A stretch of 64,000 nucleotides of DNA from Deferribacterales bacterium (GTDB lineage: Bacteria > Chrysiogenota > Deferribacteres > Deferribacterales > Geovibrionaceae). Of the stretch, positions 2,632 through 10,449 are shown in pieces. A program made the position numbers and the translations under genes. The notes beneath the pieces were generated by a model. The model ran no database searches and was not told where the DNA came from. It worked only from the letters and a program-made list of their open reading frames with translations. The DNA is taken from contig JBFWLW010000006.1 in the NCBI GenBank assembly GCA_050251945.1, positions 64,001 to 128,000 on the forward strand, given 5' to 3'. Position 1 is the stretch's first letter. Each line of letters begins with the position of its first letter.

Positions 2632-3246
2632 TTACCCGATGGGCAGAACTGTTTTTTTGTAAACTTCGTTGAGAACCTGAGCCGCACCTGCATACATAGC
2701 AGAGAGACCGCAGAGAACGCCTTCAAATCCGGCGAATTTTTTGATGGATGCGCTTTCAAACATATCGCCTATGGCAAGAAGCATGAACAGTATCACAAGC
2801 AGGAAGAAAACAACCTGAAGAGCTTTGTTCAGCTTGAAAGTACCTATGAAAAGAATGAGAGAGAAGAAGCCCCACAGAAACAGATAAGCAGACATTGCCA
2901 CTGTGTCGGGTTTCTCAAATCCCATTTTAGGAAGGACTATTATACCAACGAGGGTAAGCCAGAAAAGTCCGTATGATGTAAAGGCTAATGTGCCGAATGT
3001 ATTTTTCTTTTTCCACTCCATCATGCCCACGATGATCTGTCCGAGACCGCCGTAGAAGATACCCATTGCAAGGATTCCGCTATCCATCGCAAAAAGACCG
3101 ATATTGTGCAGGTTAAGAAGAATGGTTGTCAGACCGAAACCCATAAGCCCGAGAGGAGCAGGATTTGCGGTTGTGTCTGCGAGAACTGTTTCCGCAATCT
3201 GTCCGATAGCCGCGTCTGTATTCACAGCTTCAACTTTGTTGCTCAT
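2632..3246 (-). CDS. satP: Acetate/succinate uptake transporter (GPR1/FUN34/YaaH family)
   Basis: ANPAPLGLMGFGLTT and NTFGTLAFTSYGLFW signatures; multiple hydrophobic segments; GGAGG RBS. Confidence 0.93.
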   Translation of the reverse strand: MSNKVEAVNTDAAIGQIAETVLADTTANPAPLGLMGFGLTTILLNLHNIGLFAMDSGILAMGIFYGGLGQIIVGMMEWKKKNTFGTLAFTSYGLFWLTLVGIIVLPKMGFEKPDTVAMSAYLFLWGFFSLILFIGTFKLNKALQVVFFLLVILFMLLAIGDMFESASIKKFAGFEGVLCGLSAMYAGAAQVLNEVYKKTVLPIG

Positions 3247-4170
3247 ATTCTACCTCCAAAGTGATAATGACTAATCATCAATAAACTTGCGTATTTTCCA
3301 GTTTATCAACCTTTGCTGATTTCTATATACAAACGGTTTTATGACAATGCAATAACTATTTATTCCGAGTGAACAAGGTTAATTAATGCTATATAGTTTA
3401 AGAACATAGTTCTATATTTACAGCATACGCTCTATTAATATTTAAATAAGGCTTTTACTGTATTGTTCAGCATACATTCATCTTTTTATGCACCGGAAAT
3501 GTCCCATTAAAATTACATTATGTTCTATTTTAATTTTTTTATGTCGGATGAAAAATTTTTGCTTACCGCTGACAAATTTTGTCATATGCAACCCTTATTC
3601 TGCGTATTTTACGCCTATAATGAATCTGTAAACACTAATGGTTAATCGAATCACCTTTAAAAGCCATTTGACAGGTTTTCTGTACAGCAGCGCAATAAAG
3701 TTGAGAGAATATATAGAGAATAGAACTATTAATAAAAAAATACAAAACTTTGTTTCTTTTACATTAATTTTGACAAAGCACGAGGCTGTTCTTATTCACA
3801 GTAAATGCTATATTTACAGCTATTATTGACCTACTTTAATGTTTATAACAGATTACTATTTATAACCATAGAAAAACAACAAAAGGTAAGCGGCCTTATT
3901 TTCCATGCTGATAATACACCAAAATGTTTACCAGTTATTACCGCCGTCAGAACGTATGGCAGTAATGATTAGTCAAAATACATGTTAATGATCGTATTAA
4001 CACAGATAAAACAAATTCAGGCATTTATTAAATCAGACTACTATCAGTCTCTTACATGCTTCCAACAGGGATTTTAAATTTAATATTTTTTTTGAAATTA
4101 AATTATCCTGCCATTCCAACCATTTCCGAATTTAAACAAATAAAGATTAGTTTGCGAAACATTATTTATG

Positions 4171-4199
4171 TTGACACCAAAATTAATTTACGAAATAAT
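4171..4199 (+). promoter_or_regulatory. Sigma-70 promoter of the leader peptide/SBP transcript
   Basis: TTGACA (4171-4176), 17 nt, AATAAT (4194-4199). The predicted +1 falls on the A of the ATG at 4206. Confidence 0.7.
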
Positions 4200-4205
4200 C
4201 TATCC

Positions 4206-4280
4206 ATGAATATGAACAGAACTTTCGCTGAAACCTCTTTTTTCTTTTTTGGTTTCTTTTGGTGCTCAGCCTTTGAGTAG
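4206..4280 (+). CDS. Phe/Trp-rich attenuator leader peptide (24 aa, MNMNRTFAETSFFFFGFFWCSAFE)
   Basis: 8 Phe and 1 Trp codons in 24, including FFFFGFFW. Directly followed by a terminator and an aromatic-acid-related gene cluster. Confidence 0.8.
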   Translation: MNMNRTFAETSFFFFGFFWCSAFE

Positions 4281-4308
4281 ACCGTGGAGTTCTGCACGAT
4301 AAGCTTGC

Positions 4309-4345
4309 AAAGGGCTGTGAGAACGAACTCACAGCCCTTTTTTTT
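4309..4345 (+). terminator. Attenuator terminator hairpin
   Basis: AAAGGGCTGTGAG-aacgaa-CTCACAGCCCTTT with an 8-T run (4338-4345), sitting in the 5' leader 43 nt before the SBP start. Confidence 0.88.
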
Positions 4346-4388
4346 GGCTTTAAATCAGTTCGGAAACATATATCGGAGGTATTTTAAG

Positions 4389-5501
4389 ATGAAGAAAACG
4401 GTAATTACGGTTCTTATGCTTCTTGTCTCGGTATGCGCCTACGCCGAGATAAAAATCGGTGCTCTTCTGGCGCTCTCAGGTCCTATCTCAAACCTTGGAA
4501 AGCCCGGTCAGGAGATCATCGACGGTGTCATCGCCGAGGCAAACAAAACGAAAATGCTGGGTGATAAGATAACTGTGGTAACATACGACACCCAGTCGCT
4601 CCCTGACAGGGCGCAGACATATGCAAAGAAGCTGATCGCCAAGGACAGGGTTGACGTTATAGTCGGTCCCAACGGAACCGGCGAGGCGCTCTCTGTTTTA
4701 GGCGAAGCGATGTCCTCCAAAACGCCGATGATGGCATTCGCCGGAGGAACATCAGTTGTAATGCCTGTCCGCCCCTACGTTTTCAAATCCCCCCAGACAA
4801 CCTCAACAGCAATCGAAAAAGCTTTCAACTATCTCAAGAAAAAAGGAATAACAAAAATTGCCGTCGCCGCTGACGCAACGGGTTTCGGTCAGGACGGTCT
4901 CGACCAGATAAACAAGTATTCCAAAGGTTTTACTATTACAGGCATTGAAAAGTTCAACGCAACCGACAACGACGTGACAACGCAGATGTCAAAACTGCTT
5001 GCCGCAAAACCGCAGGCGGTTGTGATATGGACAGTGGGCAGAGCAGGCGCGATAGCCGCAAAAAGCCTGCGCGCGCTTGATCCCAACATACTTATGGTTC
5101 AATCCCACGGCATAGCCGACAACTCTTACCTGAAACTTGCGGGAGCCGCCGCAGAAAACACCGTCATGCCCTCTGTTAAACTGACAGTGGCATCAAGCCT
5201 CCCCGCAAACGACCCCCAGAAAAAAACAATCGACGCATTCATCAAAAAGTACGGTAAACTCATAGACGAAACTTCCGTCCACGCGAGCTATGCTTACGAC
5301 GGTATCAACCTTGTCCTCGCCGCTCTGAAAAAAGCTAAGGCAGAGAAGATACCTCTTCAGCAGGCGATGGAGAAGATAACCAATTTCGTCGGTGTAACAG
5401 GCGTTTACAACATGAGCAAAACAGACCACTGCGGTCTTGACCTCTCTTCAATGGTCATCGTTAAGGTGAAAGACGGCAAATTCGTTCTGGAAGAGATGTG
5501 A
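4389..5501 (+). CDS. ABC-type periplasmic substrate-binding protein (LivJ/PBP1 fold; resembles aromatic-acid-binding subgroup), paralog 1
   Basis: Signal peptide MKKTVITVLMLLVSVCAYA; IKIGALLALSG, DVIVGP, YAYDG and DHCGL motifs. GGAGG RBS supports the start at 4389 rather than 4284. Confidence 0.88.
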   Translation: MKKTVITVLMLLVSVCAYAEIKIGALLALSGPISNLGKPGQEIIDGVIAEANKTKMLGDKITVVTYDTQSLPDRAQTYAKKLIAKDRVDVIVGPNGTGEALSVLGEAMSSKTPMMAFAGGTSVVMPVRPYVFKSPQTTSTAIEKAFNYLKKKGITKIAVAADATGFGQDGLDQINKYSKGFTITGIEKFNATDNDVTTQMSKLLAAKPQAVVIWTVGRAGAIAAKSLRALDPNILMVQSHGIADNSYLKLAGAAAENTVMPSVKLTVASSLPANDPQKKTIDAFIKKYGKLIDETSVHASYAYDGINLVLAALKKAKAEKIPLQQAMEKITNFVGVTGVYNMSKTDHCGLDLSSMVIVKVKDGKFVLEEM

Positions 5502-5534
5502 TTTAACTGGAATAACATGACTTAACATATTATA

Positions 5535-5645
5535 AAAGGTTACGGATATGAGACTGCTTCGTCCTTTCAGTCCTCGCAGAGACAAACACCAGTCTTCGCG
5601 AGGAGCACCAGCGACGCGGCGATCTAAATTCTGCCGTAACCTTTA
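5535..5645. repeat. REP-like inverted dimer, copy 2 (with extra flanking inverted repeat)
   Basis: GAGACTGCTTCGTC..CTCGCAGAGAC / GTCTTCGCGAGGAGC..GCGACGCGGCGATCT, enclosed by AAAGGTTACGG ... CCGTAACCTTT. Confidence 0.8.
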
Positions 5646-5659
5646 TTCCGGAGGAACAT

Positions 5660-6772
5660 ATGAAAAAAGTTCTCATAGCCGCATCTGTGCTTCTTCTAAG
5701 CATATCTGCATATGCAGAGGTGAAGATAGGTGCGCTGCTGGCTCTTACAGGTCCTATATCCAACATCGGCAAGCCTTCACAGGAGATACTGGAGGGCGTG
5801 ATAGCCGATGCCAACAAAGCGAACTTCATGGGCGAACCCATCACCCTTGCGGCATACGACACACAGGGGATGCCCGATAAAACAATGATGTTTGCCAAGA
5901 AATTAATAAACAAAGACAAGGTTGACGTTATAGTCGGTCCAACATCCACAGGCGAGGCAATGTCCGTTATCGGCACCATCATGGATGCCCGGACACCCAC
6001 AATGGGATTCGTCGGCGGCACGCCCCCTGTAGAACCTGTACGCCAGTACATGTTCAAGTCTCCCCAGAAAACATCCACAGCCGTTGAAAAAACTTTCGGC
6101 TACCTGAAAAAGAAGGGATGGACAAAGATAGGCGTTGTTGTGGACGCAACAGGTTTCGGTCAGGACGGACTTGACCAGATAAACAAATACGCCGCCGGAT
6201 TCACAATCACAGGCGTTGAAAAGTTCAACATGACAGACACCGACATGACGACCCAGATGAAAAAAATACTGGATACCAAACCTCAGGCGATTGTGGTGTG
6301 GACAGTGGGCAAAGCGGGTGCAGTAGCCGCGAAGAGCCTGCGCGCGCTGGATAATGACATCCCGCTGATCCAGTCACACGGCATAGCCGACTTCTCATAT
6401 ACAAAACTTGCAGGCGCTGCGGCGGAAGGTTCCATAATGCCGGCACTTAAGATAGTCGTCGCAAAACAGCTTCCCGCGAACGACCCCCAGAAAAAGGCAA
6501 TAGACCTTTTCAACAAACGCTACGGCAAACTGATAAATGAAACATCCGTACACGCAATTTACGCATACGACGGCATAAACCTGATGCTGAACGCTATGAA
6601 ACGTGCAAAAAACGAAAAGATAAGCATCGTTCAGGCGCTTGAGACAACAAAGAATTTTGCCGGAGCAACAGGCGTTTATAACATAACCAAAACAGACCAC
6701 TGCGGACTGGATATGTCCTCTCTGGTCATGGTCAGGGTTAAGAACGGTCAGTTTGTTCTTGAAGATATGTAA
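5660..6772 (+). CDS. ABC-type periplasmic substrate-binding protein, paralog 2
   Basis: Colinear with and highly similar to 4389-5501 (e.g. DATGFGQDGLDQINKY identical); signal peptide; GGAGG RBS. Confidence 0.9.
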   Translation: MKKVLIAASVLLLSISAYAEVKIGALLALTGPISNIGKPSQEILEGVIADANKANFMGEPITLAAYDTQGMPDKTMMFAKKLINKDKVDVIVGPTSTGEAMSVIGTIMDARTPTMGFVGGTPPVEPVRQYMFKSPQKTSTAVEKTFGYLKKKGWTKIGVVVDATGFGQDGLDQINKYAAGFTITGVEKFNMTDTDMTTQMKKILDTKPQAIVVWTVGKAGAVAAKSLRALDNDIPLIQSHGIADFSYTKLAGAAAEGSIMPALKIVVAKQLPANDPQKKAIDLFNKRYGKLINETSVHAIYAYDGINLMLNAMKRAKNEKISIVQALETTKNFAGATGVYNITKTDHCGLDMSSLVMVRVKNGQFVLEDM

Positions 6773-6777
6773 AACTC

Positions 6778-6807
6778 AACGAGGGAGGCATTCGCCTCCC
6801 TTGTTTT
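6778..6807 (+). terminator. Intrinsic terminator after SBP2
   Basis: AACGAGGGAGGC-attc-GCCTCCCTTGTT followed by TT. Confidence 0.6.
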
Positions 6808-6810
6808 AAG

Positions 6811-6902
6811 TCCCACTTTGTAAAAGGGGGATTTAGGGGGATTTTCTTTCCGGCTTTTCAATAACAAATCCACCCCGCCCCTCCTTTGTTAAAGGAGGGA
6901 GA
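6811..6902. repeat. Second REP-like inverted dimer (CCC..CTTT..AAAGGGGG type)
   Basis: The arm TCCCACTTTGTAAAAGGGGGATTTAGGGGGATTT faces the reverse complement of AAATCCACCCCGCCCCTCCTTTGTTAAAGGAGGGAGA; each arm carries its own hairpin. Confidence 0.55.
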
Positions 6903-6978
6903 AAATCAGCTTTTTTCTTTAAATTCTTATTTCATTAGTGTACTATCTCATTCTGTCATTAATTTTACGGTGATTCAG

Positions 6979-8736
6979 ATGGTAAACGGTTTTTTTCTTG
7001 GCAACGAACTGATTGCTCTTGCCGCTGTTGATTCGGGAGTCAAAAGCGCATACGCCTATCCCGGAACCCCTTCAAGCGAGATACTCTCCGCTTTTTCAAA
7101 ATTTGCGCCCGAGCGCTATGCCCAGTGGTCGCTGAACGAAAAGATAGCTCTTGAGCTTGCCGCGGGCGAAGCGATATCCGGTTCATACACACTCTGCTGT
7201 ATGAAGATGGTGGGACTGAACGTAGCCGCCGACCCGCTTTTCAGCGTGGCATATACCGGCGTCGCAGGCGCGATGGTGCTTGTTTCGGCGGACGACCCCG
7301 GACCCTACAGCAGCCAGACGGAACAGGACAGCCGCATGTATGCCGTCAGTGCGAAGGTGCCGGTTCTCGACCCCTGCAACCCTCAGGATGCGTACCGCCT
7401 GACAAGGCTCGCATATCAGATATCCGAAAAATACCGTCTTCCTGTAATGGTCAGACCCGTTATGCGTGTCTGCCACTCACGCCAGAATTTTATGGCTGGC
7501 GACGTTTCAGAGCAGCAATCCCGTGAAACGGTTCTGCATGGAACGTTTCAGAAAGATACTCCGCGCTGGGCGGCGACACCGAAGTTCCGCCGCATCCTCC
7601 ACGAAAAGCTCAACAAAAACCTTGATCTGCTCGCCGCAGAGATGGCGCCGAAAATACCGGAAAAAAGATACGACATGGCAGTTGTCGCCTCAGGCTATGC
7701 ATACGCCATGGCGAAAGACGTTATAAATGAGATGAACCTTCCGTTCGACATGATAAAGGTCGACATGCCCTTCCCTCTGGACAAACAGTTTGTCATCGAG
7801 GCGGAGATGGTATACGACCGCATCGTCGTTCTTGAAGAGACCTTCCCCGTTATCGAGCATAACTTCACAATAAAAACCGAGGGCAGGCTCACCGGACTTG
7901 TCCCCTCCGAAGGGGAGCTTACTGCGGACATCATCGCCGACATCCTGTTCAAAACGGCAGGAATGACCCGCGAAGTTGCAAATACCGGAATAAGCACATC
8001 CGAAACACCTGTTCAGCTTAAGCCGCGCCTCTGCGCGGGATGCGGGCACAGACCCGCTTTCTATGCCATGAAGCTTGCCGCTCCGAAGGGCATCTTCCCC
8101 GGCGATATAGGCTGTTACACCCTTGGCGTTAATCTGAACGCTGTCGATACATGCATCTGCATGGGCGCTTCCATCACTTTCGCGGAAGCCATGAAGCGCT
8201 CCAACCCCGACAAACCCGTGATATGCACAATAGGCGATTCAACTTTCTTCCACACCGGCGTCACGGGACTTACAAACGCCGTGGTCAACAGCGCGCCCAT
8301 AGTCGTGGCGGTGCTGGATAATGAAACCACAGCAATGACAGGCTTTCAGCCCGTTCCCCACAAAACTGGCAAACTCACTATTGAGCTGGCTTGTCAGGGC
8401 GCAGGCGTCAGATACATAGTAAAAGTTGACCCTTATAACCTGAAAAAAGGCGTGGAGGCTCTCAAGCAGGCGCTTGCATACGCGCACACTGACAATTCCC
8501 CTGCGGTGGTGATATTCACCAAAGAATGTGTTACCAAAACGCGGTACAAGAATAAAAAAATTGTTGAAATAAGCGATGCCTGCACCGACTGCTCCATATG
8601 CTATGAGAAGTTCGAGTGTCCGGCAATTTACAGAGACAAAGCGAAGCGCATGGCAAAGATAGACGAAACCGCGTGCGTGGGGTGTATGGTCTGCATTCAG
8701 GTATGCCCGCAGAAGGCCATAGGGGTGAAGAAATGA
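6979..8736 (+). CDS. iorA: Indolepyruvate/phenylpyruvate:ferredoxin oxidoreductase alpha subunit
   Basis: AYPGTPSSEI, NEKIALE, MKMVGLNVAAD, SSQTEQDSR, LCAGCGHR, GDIGCY, IGDSTFFH and a C-terminal ferredoxin domain. ATG at 6979 is in frame with the tracked ORF. Confidence 0.93.
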   Translation: MVNGFFLGNELIALAAVDSGVKSAYAYPGTPSSEILSAFSKFAPERYAQWSLNEKIALELAAGEAISGSYTLCCMKMVGLNVAADPLFSVAYTGVAGAMVLVSADDPGPYSSQTEQDSRMYAVSAKVPVLDPCNPQDAYRLTRLAYQISEKYRLPVMVRPVMRVCHSRQNFMAGDVSEQQSRETVLHGTFQKDTPRWAATPKFRRILHEKLNKNLDLLAAEMAPKIPEKRYDMAVVASGYAYAMAKDVINEMNLPFDMIKVDMPFPLDKQFVIEAEMVYDRIVVLEETFPVIEHNFTIKTEGRLTGLVPSEGELTADIIADILFKTAGMTREVANTGISTSETPVQLKPRLCAGCGHRPAFYAMKLAAPKGIFPGDIGCYTLGVNLNAVDTCICMGASITFAEAMKRSNPDKPVICTIGDSTFFHTGVTGLTNAVVNSAPIVVAVLDNETTAMTGFQPVPHKTGKLTIELACQGAGVRYIVKVDPYNLKKGVEALKQALAYAHTDNSPAVVIFTKECVTKTRYKNKKIVEISDACTDCSICYEKFECPAIYRDKAKRMAKIDETACVGCMVCIQVCPQKAIGVKK

Positions 8737-9242
8737 TTCAGGGAATAATTTGCGGAAAAGGCGGACAGGGAGTCATAACCCTTAACGCCATGATAGGCAC
8801 TCTGGCTGCGAACATGGAAATACCCGCAGTATCGGCGGAAACCCACGGCATGGCTATGCGCGGCGGTTCCGTTGCAACGTACATCAAAATAGGCGAATGT
8901 CTCAGCGCCGCTGTTGCGGAAGGCTCTGCGGATTTCATCATCAGCCTCACCAAAGACGAAGCGCTCAGAAATATCAGCTTTATAAAAAAAGACGGGGTCA
9001 TCATCGTTGACACGGATGAACCCTTTGACATAAGCGGAGTGAAAATAATCTCTCTGCCGGCTTCCGACATAGCGGAGGAACAGTTCGGCGGCAGGATATA
9101 CGGCGGGCAGGTGCTTCTTGGCATATTTCTCGGCTGTTTTGACGGTATTGACACCGGAAAAGCACTTGAAATACTGAAAACTGCACCGAAAATAAGCATA
9201 CACGCCATAGAATACGGAGTCAGATATGCACAAACTCACTGA
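8733..9242 (+). CDS. iorB: Indolepyruvate oxidoreductase beta subunit
   Basis: GKGGQGVI and ETHGMAMRGGSV motifs; ATGA overlap with the iorA stop. Confidence 0.9.
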   Translation: MIQGIICGKGGQGVITLNAMIGTLAANMEIPAVSAETHGMAMRGGSVATYIKIGECLSAAVAEGSADFIISLTKDEALRNISFIKKDGVIIVDTDEPFDISGVKIISLPASDIAEEQFGGRIYGGQVLLGIFLGCFDGIDTGKALEILKTAPKISIHAIEYGVRYAQTH

Positions 9243-10449
9243 CATACAGCTTTTAAAGCTGGGTACGACACTGCACCACATAAAAAAGGCAAACCCTTTC
9301 TATTTTCAAAGATACGAAACGGATAGAATCACCTCTTACGAAGACCTCACAAAAATGCCCTTTATAACAAAAGATATACTCCGTCAGGGATACCCCTTTG
9401 CATATGCGTGTGCAGACACAAAAAGCTGTGTGCGGATGCATATGTCAAGCGGCACCACAGGCAAACCCATCATAAACCCCATGACCGAAGGGGACGTCAA
9501 CCAGTGGGGCGAGATAATGGCGCGCTGTTACACCACGGCAGGTGTAACCGGCGAGGACACAGTTCAGATCACCCCGTCGTTCGGACTTTTTAACGGCGGT
9601 TTCGGTTTCCACTACGGCGCAGAGAGGCTGAAAAGCTTCATAATCCCCATGGGTGCAGGACGTTCACTGCTCCAGCTCCAGTTCATAAAAGACCTTGAAA
9701 CTACGTGCCTCTGCGCAATCGCTTCCTATCCTCTGAGGCTTATTGAAGTTGCCAAACAGGAAGGCTTTAGCTTTAGAGAGACGAAACTACGCGTGGGCAT
9801 CTTCGGTGCTGAAACGTGGACCGACGGCATACGCAGGCGTATCGAAAAAGAGATGGGTATCGAGACGTTCGACATCATAGGCATGACAGAGACAGGCGGC
9901 GTGGGGCTTGGCATAGACTGCAAAGACCACAGCGGAATACACGTCTGGGACGACCACTACATTGTCGAGATAGTCGATCCGGAAACAGGCGAGCCACTGC
10001 CCGACGGGGTGGAAGGCGAAATGGTGGTGACAACGCTCACCCGCGAAGGTCTGCCGCTGATACGCTACCGCACCCGCGACATCACAAAGGTTATAAGCCG
10101 CGAACCCTGTAAATGCGGACTTCATACGCTCAAGATAGCCAGACTGAAAGGCAGAACAGACGATATGCTCAAGGTGAAAGGCGTTAACTTCTACCCTGCA
10201 CAGATAGAATCCATCCTGATGGAGTTCACCGAAATAGGCGAAGAATACCGCATCATCCTTGACAAGAAGAAGGGTAAAGGGGACGTGACCCTTGCCGTTG
10301 AAACAGATACAATCACCGACGATGCAAAGGACAGACTTGACACGAAGCTTTACGATTTCCTCGGTTTCCGCGTGGATGTGCAGTATCTGAAACCGGGTAC
10401 TCTGGAGCGTTCCGCAGGAAAAGCCATCAGGGTTGTTGATAACAGATAG
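9226..10449 (+). CDS. paaK: Phenylacetate-CoA ligase family protein
   Basis: HMSSGTTGKP, LFNGGFGFHYGAE, GIFGAETW, PLIRYRTRD, GRTDDMLKVKGVN and GKAIRVVD motifs. Confidence 0.92.
   Translation: MHKLTDIQLLKLGTTLHHIKKANPFYFQRYETDRITSYEDLTKMPFITKDILRQGYPFAYACADTKSCVRMHMSSGTTGKPIINPMTEGDVNQWGEIMARCYTTAGVTGEDTVQITPSFGLFNGGFGFHYGAERLKSFIIPMGAGRSLLQLQFIKDLETTCLCAIASYPLRLIEVAKQEGFSFRETKLRVGIFGAETWTDGIRRRIEKEMGIETFDIIGMTETGGVGLGIDCKDHSGIHVWDDHYIVEIVDPETGEPLPDGVEGEMVVTTLTREGLPLIRYRTRDITKVISREPCKCGLHTLKIARLKGRTDDMLKVKGVNFYPAQIESILMEFTEIGEEYRIILDKKKGKGDVTLAVETDTITDDAKDRLDTKLYDFLGFRVDVQYLKPGTLERSAGKAIRVVDNR

Follow-up and report, generated by a model that had tools for sequence, protein, structure and literature searches.

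A predicted leaderless phenylalanine-codon attenuator ahead of two aromatic-acid-type binding-protein genes in Seleniivibrio

The stretch of DNA analyzed here, referred to as the window, comprises 64,000 nucleotides (nt) at positions 64001-128000 of contig C6 from a Seleniivibrio genome of the order Deferribacterales (3.07 Mb, 46.6% G+C). Near its start, ahead of two genes for periplasmic binding proteins (SBP1 and SBP2), lies a short leader that most likely functions as a ribosome-mediated leader-peptide attenuator, sensing charged tRNA-Phe and gating both genes. A preliminary description, made from the letters of the window alone, had proposed an apparently leaderless Phe-codon leader peptide operating by terminator/antiterminator logic, and this proposal gains comparative support from the recurrence of the arrangement in all seven Seleniivibrio genomes sampled. 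The sample includes the window's own genome and falls into two clades, one of five genomes including the window's and a diverged one of two (G001 and G003) whose SBP1 is 70 to 71% identical. Coordinates below are those of the window, and features lie on the forward strand unless stated otherwise.

The leader peptide and its conservation

The leader opens with a promoter that matches the consensus at 11 of 12 positions. Its -35 hexamer, TTGACA (4171-4176), is identical at all seven Seleniivibrio loci and is followed after a 17-nt spacer by the -10 hexamer AATAAT (4194-4199), which ends 6 nt before an ATG at 4206. A consensus scan of 3200-6000 returned five other sites with 9 of 12 matches each; since the total of six compares with 6.2 expected from shuffled sequence, only the quality of the leader site stands out. 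The nearest gene upstream of the leader (2632-3246) is on the opposite strand, which leaves the promoter at 4171 as the sole candidate promoter for SBP1. From this geometry, the transcript is predicted to start on or adjoining A4206. The entire 6 nt from the -10 hexamer to the ATG reads CTATCC, and because the promoter fills that space, the ATG, which is the start codon in all seven genomes, has no purine-rich Shine-Dalgarno sequence.

This ATG begins an open reading frame (ORF) of 24 codons plus TAG (MNMNRTFAETSFFFFGFFWCSAFE; 4206-4280, stop codon 4278-4280) that encodes eight Phe and one Trp. The putative regulatory codon run, TTT TTC TTT TTT GGT TTC TTT TGG (FFFF G FF W; 4239-4262), keeps its phase in both clades. 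A single Trp codon (4260-4262 in the window) ends the Phe run in all seven genomes and in both versions of the peptide. Downstream of the ORF is an intrinsic terminator (4309-4348) with a fully complementary 13-bp stem (4309-4321 with 4328-4340; -22.1 kcal/mol), a 6-nt loop, and a U8 tract at 4341-4348. All three elements had been read off in the preliminary description: the promoter ahead of an ATG without a Shine-Dalgarno sequence is present, the ORF with its eight Phe and one Trp was confirmed base for base, and so was the 13-bp hairpin with eight Ts before the first structural gene. From the end of the U tract to the SBP1 ATG at 4389 is 40 nt, which hold the Shine-Dalgarno sequence of SBP1 (GGAGG, 4375-4379) and no promoter-like site in the consensus scan; SBP1 expression should therefore need read-through of the terminator. 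We also scanned the whole genome for ATG-started ORFs of 8 to 50 codons outside long ORFs that have at least five identical residues in eight and a terminator 3' of them. This left 19 candidates, and the only ones of the Phe type were two nested starts of the leader ORF.

All seven Seleniivibrio loci have the TTGACA promoter, an ATG 6 to 7 nt past the -10 hexamer, an upstream ORF (uORF) with six to eight Phe and exactly one Trp, and a terminator whose T run ends 20 to 45 nt before the SBP1 ATG. The promoter spacer and the leader are highly conserved within the genus. Five genomes have the core SFFFFGFFWCS in common, and positions of the peptide outside the Phe run vary freely, a pattern typical of a sensor more than of a functional peptide. 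The diverged clade encodes a different peptide of 28 codons, MIENNVNTLFSGFFFSFFFCFWHSDCHE or a variant of it, which still has eight Phe in frame and one Trp. In both clades the non-T bases within the run either stand third in a codon (TTC) or make up entire codons (GGT, AGC, TGC). Because these interruptions respect codon phase, the T-rich tract appears to be conserved as Phe codons; the preliminary description had named the loss of this property in relatives as evidence against it, and it holds in all seven genomes and both clades.

Phe-rich uORFs before orthologous binding-protein genes, for which the preliminary description had suggested a search, were found in all seven Seleniivibrio genomes and at none of the loci examined outside the genus. 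The leader is absent at all four loci outside Seleniivibrio with an SBP1 orthologue of 55 to 58% identity, and no Phe run precedes binding-protein homologues at 23 loci of other genera, several of which have less than 250 nt of upstream DNA; one of these (L021) gave a weak aromatic uORF match with four aromatic residues in eight. The four orthologous loci (L008-L011; family f4, genus g7), which lack a leader peptide, have a TTGAC promoter-like site and palindromes (TTAAACAATGTTT and TTAACC...GGTTAA) about 90 nt ahead of the orthologous gene, and the overlap of the palindromes with the promoter-like site suggests regulation by a DNA-binding protein. At 23 loci in other genera, the 1.5 kb before iorA homologues hold no credible Phe uORF. 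F-rich stop-to-stop frames near iorA were rejected at four loci of relatives: those at L031, L032, and L034 run into repeat elements or the start of iorA, and the one at L044 (FFYCFCFFIFRI) has no start codon. Metagenome scans for variants of the leader returned 313 matches to a binding-protein pattern, none of them confirmed, and no match to a promoter/leader DNA pattern. An order-wide pattern, TTYTTYTTYNNNTTYTTY, was discarded as too unspecific, with matches in 63 of 63 genomes in numbers near those of the reversed-pattern control.

A precedent for this architecture lies ahead of trpE. On the minus strand of contig C1 in the window's genome (G000; L066:1678-1847:-), about 320 nt before trpE, TTGACT-N17-CATTAT-N6-ATG leads into a leader peptide with the run WWW (MNIFAAKTNVKNWWWRSSSE), behind which two terminator hairpins stand in tandem before the gene. 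The gene was named from its translation, which reads as anthranilate synthase component I. Across two whole-genome scans, MNIFAAKTNVKNWWWRSSSE is the only other small ORF that combines a promoter set on the ATG, an amino-acid run, and a terminator before a related gene. The scan for leaderless starts had returned six short ORFs with a terminator, among which candidates on the minus strand of C6 and on C23 were dismissed, with no related gene behind them. A WWW (or WWWW) uORF is present at 29 of 30 trpE loci across the Deferribacterales (L067-L096), and at 27 of the 30 its ATG lies 5 to 8 nt past the end of a promoter that matches the consensus at 9 or more of 12 positions; the three exceptions are a contig end without upstream DNA, a cut promoter, and an 8/12 site. 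The trpE leader has no match in Rfam at threshold, the best being the trpB motif at 26.6 against 59 bits. Judged by these predicted features, the geometry of the Phe leader is the standard geometry of trp leaders in the order, and leaderless leader-peptide attenuation looks like a habit of the Deferribacterales.

Alternative helices in the leader RNA

The leader RNA (145 nt) has a folding energy of -50.3 kcal/mol, compared with -32.9 +/- 3.6 kcal/mol for shuffled versions (z = -4.9), and none of 200 shuffles folds as well. In the minimum free energy (MFE) fold, region 1 (4217-4228), which spans codons 4 to 8 upstream of the Phe run, pairs with 4284-4294 in region 2 (4284-4297), which starts 4 nt past the stop codon. 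This helix, 1:2, loops out the Phe run and precedes the terminator. Region 2 can pair either with region 1 or with the 5' arm of the terminator. With the first 66 nt treated as ribosome covered and the RNA ending before the 3' arm of the terminator, the predicted antiterminator (helix 2:3) joins 4289-4297 to 4317-4324 and 4302-4306 to 4312-4316 at -11.1 kcal/mol. Its 3' half (4302-4324) overlaps the 5' arm and loop of the terminator, 13 nt of which are buried in this fold of the window's leader. Helices 1:2 and 2:3 are mutually exclusive because the core GUUCUG (4289-4294) is common to both. When a ribosome is instead modeled at the stop codon, the antiterminator is almost gone, with -4.8 kcal/mol left.

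The preliminary description had called for the two conformers to be folded, and alternative folds were indeed found, but helix 1:2 had been missed. Of the pairing segments it had listed, CAGCCTTTG (4267-4275), CAAAGGGCTG (4308-4317), GTTCTGCAC (4289-4297), and GTGAGAAC (4317-4324), all are present in the sequence. The pairing of GTTCTGCAC with GTGAGAAC appears in the predicted folds, but that of CAGCCTTTG with CAAAGGGCTG is absent from all MFE folds and was set aside; by eye, G002 has a matching double change in it and G004 and G005 have a C-A mismatch.

Support for these structures was scored on a MAFFT alignment (A2) of the seven leaders, with slid-partner and shuffle controls. In the "off" structure, 87.1% of cells pair, against 29.5 to 54.3% with slid partners, and 2 of 500 shuffles attained its covariation score. 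The share of paired cells is 84.4% for helix 1:2, in which 3 of the 11 pairs have both partners changed, and 95.6% for the terminator. Counterparts of helix 1:2 (GUGAAC.CCCUG with UAGGGGUUCGC) and, from partly different sequence, of the 2:3 fold are predicted in the diverged clade, and in both clades region 2 begins 0 to 6 nt past the stop codon and 20 to 22 nt past the Trp codon. When region 1 is masked, a hairpin in the nascent RNA sequesters 13 to 14 nt of the terminator 5' arm and loop in four of the seven genomes, drawn from both clades. Antiterminators as good were obtained from 27, 32, 240, 226, 204, 9, and 22 of 500 shuffles in the individual genomes; the 27 for the window's leader amount to moderate support. 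A search of 3200-4600 against Rfam (E up to 10) identified no T-box, riboswitch, leader, or Phe_leader (RF01859) family; the eight matches listed are eukaryotic models of the small nucleolar RNA and microRNA type and one Pseudomonas small RNA, all far below threshold.

Binding-protein genes and the iorAB-paaK neighborhood

SBP1 (4389-5501) encodes a Peripla_BP_6 periplasmic binding protein with a signal peptide (Pfam E = 6.5e-50), and SBP2 (5660-6772) encodes a paralogue 68% identical to it. The closest solved relatives of SBP1 in a phmmer search are Rhodopseudomonas palustris receptors, among them p-coumarate and caffeate binders, and 7YLT, the binding protein of a Variovorax auxin-degradation operon (E ~1e-37, the group ranging from 1e-37 to 1e-28), and Leu/Ile/Val binding proteins rank far lower (~1e-17). 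In a Foldseek search with a poor structural model of SBP1 (pLDDT 61.7), the top 14 matches all belong to the aromatic-acid group, with titles naming p-coumarate, caffeate, and 3-phenylpyruvate complexes; the fold matches serve here only for these titles and as a comparison with the sequence result, with which they agree. By sequence, then, SBP1 is closer to solved aromatic-acid binders (the CouP-like proteins of R. palustris and the Variovorax auxin-operon protein) than to amino-acid binders. The contig carries no Liv-type permease gene.

The spacer between the two genes holds a repeat element (5535-5644) and no terminator. The element is flanked by an inverted repeat (AAAGGTTACGG / CCGTAACCTTT), and related copies turn up in numerous other places between genes of the genome; three relatives carry them between SBP2 and iorA. 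The spacer measures 159 nt in the window's genome and about 58 to 90 nt in other Seleniivibrio.

In all seven genomes, iorA, iorB, and a gene for a PaaK-family ligase adjoin the binding-protein genes, with end-to-end overlaps; in the window they lie at 6979-8736, 8733-9242, and 9226-10449. IorA and the ligase score below the curated NCBIfam cut-offs (579 versus 651 bits and 358 versus 646 bits, respectively). The longest iorA frame opens at a TTG at 6886. The family profile aligns from residue 36, however, and the N terminus MVNGFFLGNE read from the ATG at 6979 is conserved in the genus, so that 6979 is the likely start. A second IorA/IorB pair of the window's genome, on contig C1 (L100:4536-6853), near rimP-nusA, is unaccompanied by ligase or binding-protein genes; its IorA is 38% identical to that of the window, and the second type occurs in most genomes of the order, with the window's type patchy. 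The genome also encodes pheA (prephenate dehydratase), as do 30 of 31 related genomes, and no Phe leader precedes pheA in the window's genome.

According to the preliminary description, the switch turns on the downstream genes. This is supported for the two binding-protein genes directly behind the terminator, but iorAB-paaK is probably outside its control. Directly 3' of SBP2 lies a terminator-like hairpin (6780-6803), followed by TTTTAA, that probably terminates or reduces the transcript under attenuator control; in four of the seven genomes SBP2 has a comparable hairpin behind it, two of these being strong. Ahead of iorA is a promoter-like segment, TTTAAA-N17-TACTAT (6918-6946), conserved in the window's clade and read by eye. 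We therefore regard iorAB-paaK as probably a neighboring unit with its own promoter, into which some read-through is possible. The SBP2-iorA spacer is an insertion hot spot across the genus, and in the window it carries a palindromic element, CCCTCCTTTGTTAAAGGAGGG, at 6879-6899.

Proposed mechanism, rival explanations, and known systems

Under the attenuation proposed here, transcription would start at or next to A4206, and ribosomes would load on the 5'-terminal AUG. With ample Phe-tRNA, the ribosome would reach the stop codon (4278-4280) and cover region 2 (4284-4297), and after its release region 1 (4217-4228) could pair with region 2. In both of these Phe-replete states the terminator (4309-4340) would form, and transcription would stop at the U tract. 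With scarce Phe-tRNA, or perhaps Trp-tRNA, the ribosome would stall within 4239-4262, between regions 1 and 2, and block helix 1:2. Region 2 would then be free to pair 4289-4297 with 4317-4324, and with this antiterminator formed, RNA polymerase would read into SBP1-SBP2. The binding proteins might scavenge an aromatic precursor of Phe, such as phenylacetate or phenylpyruvate, and the adjoining IorAB and PaaK-like enzymes could turn phenylacetate into phenylpyruvate, towards Phe. A switch that opens under Phe shortage fits the scavenging of Phe or a precursor and does not fit Phe catabolism, and this direction together with the neighborhood suggests that phenylacetate or phenylpyruvate is taken up to make Phe. 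The switch might answer to Trp as well; such a response would agree with the indole compounds that IOR uses as substrates and with the relative of SBP1 that binds auxin.

Several observations weigh against attenuation of this kind or against parts of it. The antiterminator is weaker than the terminator (-11.1 versus -22.1 kcal/mol), and the "on" structure, with 78.0% of cells pairing, was reached by 47 of 500 shuffles and has no pair changed on both sides. In three of the seven genomes a different fold has the lowest energy in the nascent segment, and in these 240, 226, and 204 of 500 shuffles did as well. The 1:2 duplex itself is moderately better than shuffles, with 37, 12, 14, 9, 72, 4, and 6 of 500 as good across the seven genomes. 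The slid-partner control favors the structures, which were derived from one aligned sequence, and some of the pairs changed on both sides may reflect a shifted helix, the alignment between the clades not being structure aware. Taken together, the terminator and helix 1:2 appear well supported, and the antiterminator is plausible but not demonstrated. The only public RNA run found to contain any of the window, a metatranscriptome (0.06 of sampled words), yielded within 3900-5500 two contigs that cover 4699-5023 at 90 to 95% identity, with nothing on the leader or its 5' and 3' ends. A crude genome-wide test found promoter-like sites 5 to 8 nt before the ATG of long ORFs to be no commoner than at other distances, so leaderless starts seem particular to leader peptides here and not a general habit. 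The SFFFFGFFWCS core is invariant even in nucleotides across five genomes, where a functional peptide is possible. As for physiology, the presence of pheA means that the cell is not dependent on salvage, and the link between the switch and IOR is weakened by the hairpin after SBP2 in four of seven genomes and the promoter-like segment before iorA. The ligand assignment is tentative, the structural model of SBP1 being poor (pLDDT 61.7).

The invariant core leads to the first of the alternatives, that the ORF encodes a functional hydrophobic micropeptide, for instance a membrane peptide, with a terminator of its own, and that SBP1 is expressed by constitutive leak-through or from an unrecognized promoter. 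The peptide is very hydrophobic, and the two genomes without the invariant core keep a Phe-rich core and the Trp. Residues outside the Phe run vary, however, and the clades share no alignable peptide beyond the Phe/Trp run. The gap of only 20 to 45 nt between terminator and SBP1, free of promoter-like sites, leaves little to this explanation, as do the conserved spacing from stop codon to region 2 and the WWW uORF of the same architecture before trpE, and we consider it unlikely. The limited support for the antiterminator and the high conservation of promoter spacer and leader within the genus would also be expected if a trans-acting factor, whether an RNA-binding protein, a tRNA, or a small ligand, controlled the terminator and the ORF were incidental to a U-rich leader. 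In both clades the U-rich tract keeps the frame set by a conserved start and stop codon, which argues otherwise, as does the lack of any T-box, riboswitch, or Phe_leader match in Rfam at gathering score within 3200-4600, and a factor of this kind seems quite improbable to us. A UTP-sensitive attenuator like that of pyrBI, in which long U tracts slow RNA polymerase at low UTP, could use the U runs in 4236-4259 and the coupled small ORF. It is very improbable, given that the U tract is interrupted in step with the codons and that none of the downstream genes is tied to pyrimidine metabolism. We favor a Phe-sensing attenuator that is conserved and very probably functional.

In Escherichia coli, the pheL-pheA and pheM-pheST attenuators (Rfam Phe_leader, RF01859) consist of a Phe-codon uORF, a terminator, and helices 1:2, 2:3, and 3:4, with the stop codon placed so that the terminating ribosome covers region 2. 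The Seleniivibrio leader resembles this type in its Phe-packed uORF, its terminator before the first gene, its predicted alternative helices, and its stop-codon placement, and it would work by the logic of pheL, pheM, and trpL. It differs in matching no Rfam model and in lacking a Shine-Dalgarno sequence, its promoter abutting the ATG. In addition, region 1 lies upstream of the Phe run and not over it, which would place a stalled ribosome in the loop that helix 1:2 closes. A further difference is that two binding-protein genes, and not pheA or pheST, form the cargo.

The neighboring enzymes invite comparison with Methanococcus maripaludis, in which aryl acids feed aromatic amino-acid synthesis through IOR, as the cited passage of PMC4162585 summarizes the work of Porat et al. 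As in that route, insofar as the passage describes it, IorA, IorB, and an aryl-acid-activating ligase are encoded beside the regulated genes, and a Phe-shortage switch fits anabolic use of aryl acids. Unlike that route, the Seleniivibrio system is predicted from genes, its IorA and ligase score below the NCBIfam cut-offs, and its enzymes probably have their own promoter. The Phe-shortage switch nevertheless argues that the neighborhood serves Phe supply and not breakdown, and it offers a testable handle on the direction of IOR clusters in anaerobes. Taken further, and rather doubtfully, charging of tRNA-Phe (and tRNA-Trp) may control the scavenging of arylacetates (phenylacetate and indole-3-acetate), which a genus-specific IorAB-PaaK module would reductively carboxylate to aromatic amino acids, with undescribed leaderless attenuators occurring order-wide. 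If such tRNA-charging control of arylacetate salvage were true, it would be the first regulatory signature of an anabolic IOR cluster in a bacterium.

The preliminary description had recognized no described leaderless attenuator in front of aryl-acid binding proteins; leaderless leader-peptide attenuators as such had already been described. A study on Deinococcus deserti (PMC4007540) reports 14 predicted leaderless leader peptides, including one for trpEGD, with 5' ends mapped by differential RNA sequencing, and a preprint on mycobacteria (bioRxiv 10.1101/834739) reports leaderless polycysteine small-ORF attenuators. In the open-access literature we found no leader peptides in Deferribacteres and no Phe leader before binding-protein genes. 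As far as these sources go, both systems share with Seleniivibrio a leader start codon at or 1 nt from the 5' end, predicted in Seleniivibrio from promoter geometry alone, and uORFs rich in the cognate amino acid ahead of genes related to that amino acid. Leaderless leader-peptide attenuation is already known from Deinococcus and Actinobacteria, and what is unusual here is the cargo. With the Seleniivibrio leader, the known range of classical leader-peptide attenuation in leaderless form would come to include the phylum Deferribacterota. Unlike the Deinococcus and mycobacterial leaders as those texts describe them, this leader would gate uptake proteins of the aromatic-acid type: two orphan binding proteins beside an extra IorAB-PaaK module, and not the de novo Phe pathway.

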